From positions 1 to 64,000 of IMG/VR virus record IMGVR_UViG_3300033073_000980: a stretch of 64,000 bases of DNA, one strand, 5' to 3'. The notes beneath the pieces were generated by a model, which saw only the letters and a list, made by a program, of their open reading frames with translations, did not search any database and was not told the origin of the DNA. How positions within the stretch are numbered: the first letter of the stretch is position 1; each line of letters begins with the position of its first letter. Made by a program: the position numbers and the translations under genes. Origin of the DNA: a virus. Lineage: Duplodnaviria; Caudoviricetes. This document shows, in pieces, positions 1,633 to 4,866 of this stretch.

Positions 1633-1812
1633 TTATGAGGCAACTTTTTGTTTATTTATTTCCTCAACATATATTTTCAATATGTTAGAAGCTCCATAGA
1701 AATTACCGCTGGTCAACATCATTTCTGATATTGCCAAAATTCTAGCCAAGTCTCTCTCCTTTGGAGACCTGCTTGTGTCGTCTGCAATAGCTTGTAGTTC
1801 TTTATTTCCCAT
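1633..1812 (-). CDS. hypothetical protein (MGNKELQAIADD...)
   Basis: Start reassigned to 1812, 3 nt downstream of the TATATTTA box. Confidence 0.65.
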   Translation of the reverse strand: MGNKELQAIADDTSRSPKERDLARILAISEMMLTSGNFYGASNILKIYVEEINKQKVAS

Positions 1813-1883
1813 ACCTAAATATACGAAACAGCCTCTCAACAAACAACTAAAATATTTTTTCTTTTGTTGGATATTAAAATTGT

Positions 1884-1956
1884 TCTTCGTATCTTTAGGA
1901 TGTCGGAAAGATGGAGTACGAAGGGCGGGGTCAAAACCTGAAGAAATCAGACGTAA
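1884..1956 (+). ncRNA. putative antisense-oriented structured small RNA, copy 1
   Basis: Plus-strand class-1 promoter followed by ATGTCGGAA..AGTACGAAGGGCGG-[hairpin]-GAAGAAATCAGACGTA, shared with copy 2 at 3398-3468. Confidence 0.45.
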
Positions 1957-1981
1957 GCTGTTCTTTAAAAAAAAATGGTTC

Positions 1982-2012
1982 AAAAAAAGAACCACCCCCT
2001 TTCGGAGGCAGT
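1982..2012 (-). terminator. intrinsic terminator
   Basis: Minus strand ACTGCCTCC-GAAA-GGGGGTGGT 9-bp stem with GNRA loop followed by a U-rich tract, just after the 2035-2259 gene. Confidence 0.8.
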
Positions 2013-2034
2013 CCCTTACTAACTTTAACTAAAT

Positions 2035-2259
2035 CTATTGCTCGGTAAATTCTTCCACCTTCTGATTGTAAAGCTCAACCATATCGATGAGAAGTTGGAT
2101 GCTCTGGACTCTTGCTTTTGAGCTGTAGCCTAATGTTTGCTTGGCTGCGTCTCTGGCTGAGAATCTAGACATCTTCATGCCTGTCTTCATTTCTAATTCA
2201 AGACCTCTGATGATTGTTTTCAGTCTGAATAGTTCGATGTTGTTTCCTGTGATTGTCAT
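2035..2259 (-). CDS. hypothetical early protein
   Basis: ORF with own promoter (2284-2297) and terminator. Confidence 0.75.
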   Translation of the reverse strand: MTITGNNIELFRLKTIIRGLELEMKTGMKMSRFSARDAAKQTLGYSSKARVQSIQLLIDMVELYNQKVEEFTEQ

Positions 2260-2323
2260 AACCTTTATTTCTTATTTCCTATACCTAAATATACGAAATA
2301 GCCTCTAAGGGACCAACTAAAAT

Positions 2324-2350
2324 AAAAAAAAAATGGGCCCGAAGGCCCAC
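2324..2350 (-). terminator. intrinsic terminator
   Basis: GTGGGCC-TTCG-GGCCCAT followed by a run of T on the minus strand, right after the DUF932 stop. Confidence 0.85.
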
Positions 2351-2353
2351 TCT

Positions 2354-3145
2354 TTAGATGTATGATTCTGCTAGCTCGTAAAGCTTCTCATTCAATTCAA
2401 TATCCCTATTGAAGTTCTTGATTGAACGAGCTGTCTTATTTCGGCCGGTAGAGGCTTTGTATTTAAAACCACCACGAACCATCTTCTCCTGAATCACATT
2501 GAAGACTGTCCAAAGATCATTACCCTCATCCTCTTTACGGACAGGCTTAAGAATCTCCTCAGCGGTAACCTCAGCTCCACCCTCTCCGAATCTGATTCCC
2601 AAAGCAGCTAAAGCCATCTCAGCCTTCTGCTCCTCAGTCAAAGTAACCTCTCTAAATTTGTTCAAGGTCTCAACAGTCACCGGCAAAGCTTCAACCAACC
2701 CCATAACTGTCTTCTTCAACTCATCGAAAGAATAACCCTTATGACGAATGCTCATAGAACCGAAATCTTTGGTTGCAATAACCAACCCGTTAGAACAAAT
2801 CAATCGGAACAAACCGGCACGGAACTGGAATGAAGAAAGACCATCGTGAGAGTTGCTCAAAAGGATCTGAGGATAAACCGTCTCACCATCCTCGGCCTTG
2901 ATAACCACATTGTCGTTTCTGAACACAACCATATGCTTACCAAAACTACCACCAACAGATTCTCCCTTGCGAGTCTTTCTCTGTTTAACATCAACAACGT
3001 TCCAGCCTAATGTAGCCATATCATCAATTAGATCGGCAGTAGGTACATGAACGTACTTAGAAGATACCTTGGCAGATACGCCAGTTTCAAGGACTGCAGG
3101 AGCCATCTTGGCAATCTGCTCACGGGTTAAAAATGTGTTTGTCAT
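2354..3145 (-). CDS. DUF932/DUF945 (YubP/YfjQ-like) family protein
   Basis: S.KY..VPT..LID....LGW, KHMVVFR, PQILLSNSHDGLSSFQFRAGLFRLICSNGLV motifs; start reassigned to MTNTFL (3145). Confidence 0.8.
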   Translation of the reverse strand: MTNTFLTREQIAKMAPAVLETGVSAKVSSKYVHVPTADLIDDMATLGWNVVDVKQRKTRKGESVGGSFGKHMVVFRNDNVVIKAEDGETVYPQILLSNSHDGLSSFQFRAGLFRLICSNGLVIATKDFGSMSIRHKGYSFDELKKTVMGLVEALPVTVETLNKFREVTLTEEQKAEMALAALGIRFGEGGAEVTAEEILKPVRKEDEGNDLWTVFNVIQEKMVRGGFKYKASTGRNKTARSIKNFNRDIELNEKLYELAESYI

Positions 3146-3397
3146 AACTATTATTTCTTTATTGTACCCTAAATATACGAATAAGAGGCTTATGAGGCAA
3201 CAGTTAAACAAAAAAAAATAACGACCATCCAAAGTATTTTTGTGGCCATATATACGGTATGTGGTAGACTCTAGAAGGTTTTGATTGTTAGTTTATTGTG
3301 TGCCCTAAGCTCGTTTCCTTATGTAACGTCAATGTCTCTGAAGACTACATTGATAAATATCAAAAAAAATAAAATAACTGTTGGCCCCCTGAACTAA

Positions 3398-3468
3398 TGT
3401 TCGTATCTTTAGGATGTCGGAAGATAGTACGAAGGGCGGCTCCAAAGGGGTTGAAGAAATCAGACGTA
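3398..3468 (+). ncRNA. putative antisense-oriented structured small RNA, copy 2
   Basis: Same promoter and conserved blocks as 1884-1956; the middle hairpin differs in sequence but can still pair. Confidence 0.45.
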
Positions 3469-3469
3469 G

Positions 3470-3712
3470 TTTGGGCCCTGGAAAAAGTGGTACTCTCGGC
3501 GGTACCTTACCACTCCCCTCCCCGGTACCTCCAGCGGCCGGCCCCCGGCAGGTTCCCCCAGACCTCCCCCCAACACCCGGTTGGCCGCCTGCGGCGGGAC
3601 CTCCCCCCCTCCCCCCAAGCTCTCCGTGGGGTTCCGGCAGGTATCGACTCGATCGACTCGAGCGGTACTAAGAAAGTCACCGGAGGGGTACACAGGCCGG
3701 TAAACTCTCCCT
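3470..3712. other. GC-rich, C-tract-rich non-coding island including C7TC6 (G6AG7 on minus strand)
   Basis: Abrupt GC-rich segment with many C-runs in an otherwise AT-rich genome; C7TC6 at 3603-3616. Confidence 0.7.
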
Positions 3713-3910
3713 AAAATATCTTACACATATTCTTCTCTATTTCTACACACCATACCTTATTTTTATTATAGTACTATGTAATACCAACTACTATAGACTA
3801 CACATTACCTTTCATTACACACTTCCCATATCATACCCAACCCTATCATTCATATGTTTTTTCATAGTATCTTAGTGTTATCTTACGTCTATATTCTTCT
3901 ATAATATACT

Positions 3911-4082
3911 CTACAGTTTACTAGCTACGGTTGTCTAATCCTACGATTTTCTCTACGGTTTACTCCGTACGGTTTACTCTACAATTTTCTCTACAGTTGT
4001 CTTGCTACGGTTATCTCTATACGGTTTACTCTATGGCCGTAGACGTCTATCTTTTTATCCTACGGTTTACTATCTACGGTTT
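3911..4082. repeat. array of ~11 degenerate CTACGGTT(T) direct repeats (iteron-like)
   Basis: Copies near 3911, 3925, 3941, 3953, 3967, 3979, 3991, 4005, 4019, 4060 and 4074, mostly 12-16 bp apart, in non-coding DNA. Confidence 0.8.
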
Positions 4083-4125
4083 TCTATATAGTGTTTATAA
4101 CCTGAATTACTCTACTCCTACTCCT

Positions 4126-4665
4126 TTATAGGTTAGGGTAATTTTCTTTCATAGATTCTTTCAGTAATTGTCTTGCTTTATGCAATTGTGATCTTACCGT
4201 TCCCGGATGTATGTTTAACATCTCTGCTACATCTTTTCCGGTCATATCTTCCAAGCAATGCAATTCAATCATTTTCCTATACCCCGGCGATAACCTTTCT
4301 ATATGTTTTATAACTGTCTGCAGATCTAAACTAGCGGTATTGTCGTTATACGATCCTTTATTTAGTTCTACTACATCTTTATCATACCTTTGAGTTCTTA
4401 CATGGTTTAACGACAAAGTTATAACTACTCTAAGACACCACGGTATTAAGAAGCTATCGTCTTTTAATTGATGTACACACCTAAAGATCTTCTCAAAACT
4501 ATCACACATTAGATCCTCGGCATCATCCTTATTCTTCACATACTTGTATGCAGTTCTAAAAAAGTGTTCTTTCTTATGTGTATATAGATGAACTTTAGCT
4601 TCATCTGAACCTTCTCTTAACTGCTTGGCTAATATCTCTACCGGTATTCCTCCTATCTCGCTCAT
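4126..4665 (-). CDS. ECF-type sigma-70 RNA polymerase sigma factor
   Basis: Region 2 (AYKYVKNKDDAEDLMCDSFEKIF...W..RV..LSLNHVR) and region 4 HTH (VAEMLNIHPGTVRSQLHKARQLL). Confidence 0.9.
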   Translation of the reverse strand: MSEIGGIPVEILAKQLREGSDEAKVHLYTHKKEHFFRTAYKYVKNKDDAEDLMCDSFEKIFRCVHQLKDDSFLIPWCLRVVITLSLNHVRTQRYDKDVVELNKGSYNDNTASLDLQTVIKHIERLSPGYRKMIELHCLEDMTGKDVAEMLNIHPGTVRSQLHKARQLLKESMKENYPNL

Positions 4666-4808
4666 TAGATCTGCTCTCTTACTTTACCGGCCCATACGGT
4701 TGTATAGTCCTCTTCTTCTAGAAAATTCGCGATCCATTCTTCACGAGTCATTCCTATTCTCTCGAGCTCTTCATCGCTCATTAATGCACCGATTTGTTCT
4801 TGTGTCAT
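4665..4808 (-). CDS. 47-aa acidic microprotein (MTQEQIGALMSDEELERIGMTREEWIANFLEEEDY...)
   Basis: Hand-translated; promoter at 4829-4842, GTT-ATG start, TAATG coupling to the sigma gene. Confidence 0.65.
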   Translation of the reverse strand: MTQEQIGALMSDEELERIGMTREEWIANFLEEEDYTTVWAGKVREQI

Positions 4809-4866
4809 AACCTATGTCTTTTTTACTATATAAAGATACGAATAAAGCTTTATATAAACAACTAAA

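Follow-up and report, generated by a model that had tools for sequence, protein, structure and literature searches.

What stands behind the only two promoters that point against the genes in a stretch of phage DNA where almost every gene is read from the other strand? The question is raised by the window, i.e., the whole stretch of DNA analysed here, which covers positions 1 to 64,000 of IMG/VR virus record IMGVR_UViG_3300033073_000980 (Duplodnaviria; Caudoviricetes) and forms the first 64 kb of a 72-kb phage record that is 44% complete. The window has a GC content of 36-42%, carries almost all of its open reading frames (ORFs) on the minus strand and encodes a DNA polymerase, RNR, GroEL, GTP cyclohydrolase and an ECF-type sigma factor. 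An earlier note, made from the sequence alone, had described a two-copy repeat behind the two plus-strand promoters as an antisense-promoted, structured RNA-like element. We conclude with good confidence that this repeat, hereafter the module, is a transcribed element that works at the RNA level.

The two copies were found where the earlier note had placed them, with the same blocks behind each plus-strand promoter: an exact 23-nt repeat (1886-1908 = 3400-3422) was followed by block AGTACGAAGGGCGG (at 1915 and 3426) and block GAAGAAATCAGACGTA (at 1940 and 3453), and the observed match number of the latter (≤3 mismatches) was reached in 0 of 100 shuffles, placing the repetition beyond chance. 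The window holds 12 matches to the 14-nt promoter box TTCGTATMTTTAGG at ≤1 mismatch, where 0.04 would be expected: 10 stand on the minus (gene) strand ahead of small gene cassettes, and those on the plus strand are at the two claimed places only (1886-1899 and 3400-3413), with GTTGG 15 nt 5' of each of these two. The copy-1 promoter (1866-1899, plus strand) consists of GTTGG at 1866-1870, the 15-nt spacer and TTCGTATCTTTAGG at 1886-1899, a motif identical to that of the 10 minus-strand promoters. The copy-2 promoter (3380-3413, plus strand) consists of GTTGG at 3380-3384, a spacer with a clade-conserved GGYCCCCTGA and TTCGTATCTTTAGG at 3400-3413; the coordinates of the copies stood, and the -35 element of copy 2 had to be corrected to 3380-3384. 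Copy 1 of the module (1900-1960, plus strand) is made up of a 5' part (1900-1925), a hairpin termed H2 (1926-1929 pairing with 1937-1940, loop GUCAAAA) and a 21-nt box (1940-1960, GAAGAAATCAGACGTAAGCTG), and copy 2 (3414-3473, plus strand) of a 5' part (3414-3436), H2 (3437-3443 pairing with 3447-3453; 7 bp, three of them G-U, loop AAA) and the box (3453-3473). Their scores under the covariance model R1 were 78.7 bits (E 4e-15) and 73.6 bits, respectively.

The phage that carries this repeat pair is a large (~166 kb) Flavobacterium-type phage: judged by the DUF932 protein encoded next to the module, its closest cultured relative is Flavobacterium phage vB_FspM_immuto (43% identity). Both copies were nearly unchanged in the three contigs with 92% DUF932 identity, and both were present in diverged form in a relative with 79% identity, while in ~50 relatives with ≤55% identity no module was found within 4 kb of the gene (nhmmer and covariance model); phage immuto itself has an iteron region and no module. 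Relaxed-pattern scans of viral and metagenome collections, combined with R1 (built on 35 sequences), yielded 80 matches, which reduced to 52 distinct alignment rows and 49 distinct full-length members at 61 loci. Judged by the names of the sample records, the sources were mostly lake and estuary metagenomes, i.e., freshwater and brackish uncultured phage contigs. Copy-1-type and copy-2-type hairpins were common to diverged phages, therefore the duplication is old and both copies have been retained. In one metagenome contig (L165, 7253-8979), copy 1 and copy 2 were followed after 130 nt by a second copy 1, with copy 2 joined to sequence that usually lies 5' of copy 1, which points to a rearrangement or else to a misassembly through the repeats.

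Across this family the order of parts was the promoter, a variable 5' part of ~30 nt, H2 and the box GAAGARAUCAGACGUAGUUUG. The 5' part was conserved inside subfamilies (UGUCGGAAAGAU..AGUACGAAGGG) and replaced in the L066, L067 and L170 types. The box was near-invariant even in a scan that fixed just its first 5 nt. H2 is formed by segment X, which the earlier note had found to differ between the window copies and to form a hairpin in both, and the compensatory change it proposed was borne out by 22 sequence variants from ~50 distinct members. Their stems ranged from 4 to 7 bp and their loops from 3 to 8 nt (including AAA, CAA, UAAG, GGCAA, GACAA, GUAAAAA and AAUAGCAA; none common to all). In 21 of the 22 variants, versus 4.3% of composition-matched shuffles, H2 had a stem of 4 bp or more that closed precisely on the opening G of the box. 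Pairs 34-46 and 35-45 alternated between GC, GU, CG and AU, both-sided changes were present at three pairs, and the covariation score of H2 (0.219; shuffle mean 0.104) was reached by none of 500 shuffles and dropped when the pairing partners were slid. Thus H2 is a helix kept by compensatory substitution across homologues, the property by which a structured RNA is recognized, and the covariation and the conservation in relatives that the earlier note had asked for were both found (H2 covarying; 49 distinct members).

Moreover, H2 had a mean free energy of -4.4 kcal/mol in the promoter-sense RNA versus -1.6 kcal/mol in its complement, the sense form being more stable in 21 of the 22 variants. 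Because of its G-U pairs, the hairpin is predicted to be stable only in the sense RNA, which argues for an RNA made from the adjoining promoter. The promoter box lay upstream of the module in all 49 members (46 by strict pattern, three as near-matches), with TTG 14-19 nt 5' of it in every case. In the complete 166-kb relative G001, which has every gene on one strand, strict promoter-motif matches numbered 15 on the gene strand (14 of these at 88.8-96.2 kb) and exactly two on the opposite strand, namely those of the two module copies (88.6 and 90.1 kb). An ATG follows the promoter box (TTTAGG) after 1 nt at nine of 19 listed gene-strand promoter-like sites of G001, and therefore transcription most likely starts right after TTTAGG and the module most likely forms the extreme 5' end of its RNA. 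The initial 57-75 nt of the module RNAs would overlap no gene. Many promoter-cluster genes of G001 (90.2-95.9 kb) look leaderless, as does a 59-aa ORF of the window (1633-1812, minus strand) with its ATG 1 nt after the TTTAGG box; the remaining promoter-cluster genes have a short A-rich leader with AAAGGTTATG at its end.

A point absent from the earlier note is that the two window copies belong to different classes, one ending in a U-run and the other reading on toward iterons. A U-run of at least 4 nt was present in 14 distinct members, among them the copy-1 type found in most phages. In these, the box is followed by UUC and U9-10, and RNAfold predicts an imperfect hairpin of 11 bp built from the box together with the U tract. 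In the window, the copy-1 tail region (1961-2012), read from the sequence as UUCUUU followed by A9, shares its positions with a pair of terminator hairpins on the minus strand (GGTTC..GAACC and CCTCCGAAAGGGGG, both with a T-run) that belong to a 74-aa gene (2035-2259, minus strand); termination of this copy is doubtful because its U-run is only 3 nt.

The remaining 35 members, window copy 2 included, lacked the U-run and formed the read-on class. The untranslated continuation of copy 2 (3474-3712, plus strand) starts with a GGTAC..GTACC hairpin (3484-3501) and then enters a C-rich tract (40% C over 250 nt) whose sequence varies, with indels among close relatives. A tract with 37-50% C over 250 nt followed the read-on copies, ahead of the iterons, in the window and in the L075, L125, L161 and L173 types. 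Behind an AT-rich, G-poor stretch (3713-3897) follows the iteron array (3898-4090; ~12 iterons CTAC(G/A)GTTnnCT), a putative replication origin into which copy 2 points. Iteron arrays lay 450-1300 nt downstream of read-on copies in many contigs, and the L070 type kept an identical box and the read-on layout with different iterons (TCGGGTTAC, 12-nt period). Copy 2 diverges from the first promoter of the gene-strand cluster; in the window and L075 types it points across the iterons toward the convergent sigma-factor gene, and a promoter of the gene strand stands head-on to it, ~117 nt apart, in the L069 and L064 types. The promoter-driven antisense arrangement proposed in the earlier note was supported, though it was not universal: the single copy of the L067 type has a terminator on one side and the next promoter on the other, and runs in the same direction as its neighbour genes. 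Therefore cis-antisense pairing is not the conserved function, and antisense orientation is common in the family without defining it.

Several further features of these regions were recorded. The GGTAC..GTACC hairpin (here 3484-3506) persists, with an altered loop, in relatives and in L075; its minus-strand form has ACTTTTTCC behind it and was called terminator-like, and it would stop gene-strand transcripts crossing the origin just before they reach the module. The iterons of related origin-like regions differ (GAGTCGGGTTAC with a 12-nt period; AACGGGT in immuto; AT-rich repeats with an 8-nt period in the L101/L127 type), and the layout is kept despite these differences (L070 10253-10430 and 10694-10765; L193 12100-12230 and 12540-12700; L127 3632-4100). 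Where promoters face each other (L069 6629-6760; L064 6072-6203), the opposing transcripts would be complementary to each other along the full length of the module. The GGYCCCCTGA of the copy-2 promoter spacer (window 3385-3394) is kept across the diverged clades L064, L069, L075 and L101 and the copy-1 spacers are unrelated to it, which hints at regulation specific to copy 2. About 30 nt 5' of the copy-2 -35 element, an imperfect palindrome (3329-3353; TCAATGT-CTCTGAAGACT-ACATTGA, inner GTCT/AGAC) lies within a 150-nt non-coding block that is highly conserved among the 92% relatives; with divergent promoters on either side, it is a possible site for a regulator. The ECF-type sigma gene (4126-4845; Sigma70_r2/r4, ECF) adjoins the iterons and has a 47-aa ORF and a variant promoter, TTCGTATCTTTATA, upstream. 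The promoter box contains CGTA, a typical ECF -10 core, and the dominant promoters may therefore be read either by a host sigma or by the phage ECF-type sigma. In G001 (97568-97650), a promoter box is followed by a stretch of tRNA-like appearance.

How, then, may the module work? Our favoured reading, held tentatively and at a little under an even chance, is a leader or small-RNA module in which copy 2 serves origin-directed untranslated transcription and copy 1 acts in trans; it overlaps with the elongation-control alternative weighed below. The repeat would be the transcribed 5' module of two untranslated units, each started by the dominant phage promoter. The box beside H2 would be the recognition site for a partner, be it the machinery of the host for transcription or RNA or a phage protein that is conserved; this partner must be invariant among these phages because the box does not vary. 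Copy 2 would be the leader of a non-coding transcript that crosses the C-rich tract and heads for the iterons and for the convergent gene of the ECF sigma, and copy 1 would be a short paralogue with the same 5' end, which in relatives would end at the hairpin and U-run to give an RNA of ~75 nt. In cis, the module would secure the competence or the regulation of untranslated transcription directed at the origin; in trans, the short copy would supply the same RNA as a regulator or competitor. The production of the RNAs, their 3' ends, their partner and any role in replication or elongation control are inferred.

A number of observations weigh against this reading. The alignment used for the pair counts had been fitted to the model, which favours structure. 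Whole-element folds were no more stable than those of shuffles (RNAfold z +0.87, -0.56 and -0.41). The compact, closed, ribozyme-like fold of the earlier note was accordingly not upheld (z +0.87 and -0.56), since no global fold beyond shuffles and no supported end-closing helix was found and the 3' block is conserved as sequence. The pairing that it drew between the ends (AUGUCGGA with UCAGACGU) is drawable; it was not predicted by RNAfold, was equalled in 452 of 500 column shuffles and was broken without compensation where the 5' end differs. Within the box, a CAGAC/GUUUG hairpin showed no double compensations and had one pair broken in 15 of 52 rows, and the box thus appears to be conserved as sequence, not demonstrably as a helix. 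As for the 3' ends, the promoter was present in all members, while the hairpin with U9-10 was predicted in 14, was not called a terminator by a simple consensus scan and is weak in window copy 1, where no more than UUCUUU precedes the A-run that belongs to the terminators of the convergent gene. The search for a partner gave none: there was no conserved complementary site in five phage genomes, and an exact scan of 185,579 species genomes with the degenerate 21-mer box gave five single matches in unrelated high-GC taxa, by rough estimate about the level of chance. Finally, the carrier phages are all uncultured and the nearest cultured phage has no module. The scan of species genomes, which covered exact matches only, led us to reject a mimic of a host sequence or of a CRISPR (clustered regularly interspaced short palindromic repeats) repeat, as its five matches were single and at about the level of chance.

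Two alternatives also start from RNA. A trans-acting phage small RNA, in which the ~75-nt copy-1 RNA and a processed 5' end of copy 2 pair through the box with a conserved host transcript, is unlikely in our judgement. It would suit the own promoter and hairpin/U-run 3' end of the 14 distinct members, the free-standing L067 unit co-directional with genes, a 21-nt invariant stretch that could serve as a seed beside a stabilising hairpin, and the lack of a conserved target within phage genomes, where the best matches to phage mRNAs (11-13 nt, five phage genomes) fell in non-orthologous genes. However, the exact degenerate pattern found no complementary site in the 185,579 species genomes (short or mismatched seeds would escape it), and this alternative leaves unexplained why one copy always faces the iterons without a U-run. 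The other is a leader for processive antitermination or against Rho, in the manner of lambda nut, HK022 put or the rrn leader, which we rate as rather unlikely: hairpin and box would load onto RNA polymerase directly or via Nus-type factors, so that the untranslated transcripts cross the rut-like C-rich tract and terminators into the origin. Both copies do lie directly behind promoters of untranslated units, and in several clades the read-on copies are succeeded by a C-rich, G-poor tract with the look of a site for Rho loading. The order of the parts, first a hairpin free to vary in sequence and then a linear box that is invariant, is similar to boxB-boxA in rrn leaders. Furthermore, 12 of the 35 read-on members have GCUCWWW within 16 nt past the box and the copy-1 tail is UGUUCUUUAAAA, both of which may be reminiscent of boxA. 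Against antitermination, the 3-8-nt H2 loops lack the conserved GNRA-like boxB pentaloop of lambda-type nut sites and hence offer no boxB-type protein site, the U-run class looks terminated directly after the box, and window copy 2 has no GCUC motif.

The remaining alternatives place the function in the DNA or in a peptide. As a DNA operator, the 21-bp box or the inverted repeat formed by the promoter and TACGAA would bind an iteron-binding initiator or another regulator that represses or blocks both antisense promoters. The inverted repeat, on which the earlier note had based an operator role, is present in both window copies and absent from the L132, L066 and L067 subfamilies. The reverse complement of the box contains CTACGTCT, similar to CTACGGTT iterons, and the iteron array is bordered by a degenerate inverted copy of the box (window 3884-3899; likewise in the L173 and L069 types). 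This complementarity to an odd iteron recurs in CTACGGTT clades but not in phages with other iterons: in the L070 type the box is identical, the iterons are the unrelated TCGGGTTAC and there is no CTACGTCT site. The box thus does not co-vary with the iterons, and the idea of an inverted iteron or initiator operator was rejected. Nor does a double-stranded DNA site account for a hairpin kept on one strand by G-U pairs, and we regard the operator in general as quite improbable. Most improbable of all are leaderless micro-ORFs, with RNAs starting at AUG and encoding short peptides of 13 aa (copy 1) and 85 aa (copy 2). This phage has many leaderless genes, like those behind nine of the 19 G001 sites above, ATG opens both window copies, and their frames agree for the first ~10 codons. 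However, the triplet at the RNA start was ATG in 23, TTG in 11, GTG in seven and another in eight of the 49 members; the distance from start to box (34-47 nt) represented all three phases; the L069, L075 and L125 copies had early stops; the 85-aa ORF of copy 2 ended after 35 aa in the 92% relative L007; and the box had no synonymous-type variation. Protein coding of the module was rejected on the unconserved start, phase and stops, in agreement with the earlier note, which had placed the conservation at the nucleic-acid level. Its argument from indels stood in part: the first two (+1 and +2, sum 3) leave the frame intact up to segment X, and X itself (11 versus 13 nt) breaks it.

The favoured reading, a leader or small-RNA module, was then set beside known systems. 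Like HK022 putL/putR and lambda nutL/nutR, the module comes as two paralogues in each genome, each placed where an early-type transcript begins; it combines a stem-loop with conserved sequence and could act on its own polymerase. There is no sequence relation, and it differs in having one covarying helix with an unconserved loop, one class with a U-run and two units that are non-coding and antisense to all genes; antitermination is only hypothetical here. In several clades the copy-2 promoter would fire an untranslated RNA into an iteron- and AT-rich origin-like region, as in ColE1 RNA II, the T4 oriF/oriG R-loop transcripts, the T7 primary origin and lambda pR. In contrast to such RNAs, the module RNA is C-rich and not G-rich over its GC island and the origin is a putative one; moreover, the known regulator of ColE1-type systems is antisense (RNA I), whereas the second RNA here is a sense paralogue. 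With lambda OOP, P22 sar and P1/P7 c4 it shares the nature of a small promoter-driven RNA opposite phage genes in an early region near the origin, yet its first 57-75 nt lie opposite no gene, the L067-type member is co-directional with its neighbours, and no conserved site complementary to its conserved part was found among the phage mRNAs of the five phage genomes. The families of Rfam, including Bacteroidetes and phage motifs and small ribozymes, are similar in size and genomic setting and gave no match: at gathering thresholds Rfam 15 had none in the 64-kb window, and at E ≤10 over 1800-4200 the seven weak matches included none on the module and none on the plus strand, as the earlier note had anticipated. 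No paper was found that connects Flavobacterium phages with small RNAs (those on immuto concern DNA modification and polymerases), and the literature on boxA in Bacteroidetes gave nothing usable. The module has the defining features of none of the known systems compared, and is a previously undescribed RNA element that belongs to no curated RNA family.

Beyond a small number of model coliphages, phage regulatory RNAs are barely known, and for phages of Flavobacterium or other Bacteroidota no such RNA is on record. Here, a family of ~50 sequences combines a covarying hairpin, a near-invariant 21-nt box and a fixed genomic logic. A bolder proposal, which we consider distinctly unlikely as it stands, is that the module is a new element programming origin-directed untranslated transcription in large Bacteroidota phages: the leader would let polymerase or transcript reach, activate or prime the iteron origin, and the short sense paralogue would set the timing or level of replication by titrating the same factor. 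In that case, the antisense RNAs that control plasmid copy number would have a counterpart acting as a sense decoy. The module gives a way into the control of early transcription and of replication in freshwater phages, which are abundant, and it is a testable candidate for a site of RNA-protein or RNA-RNA recognition that would be new.

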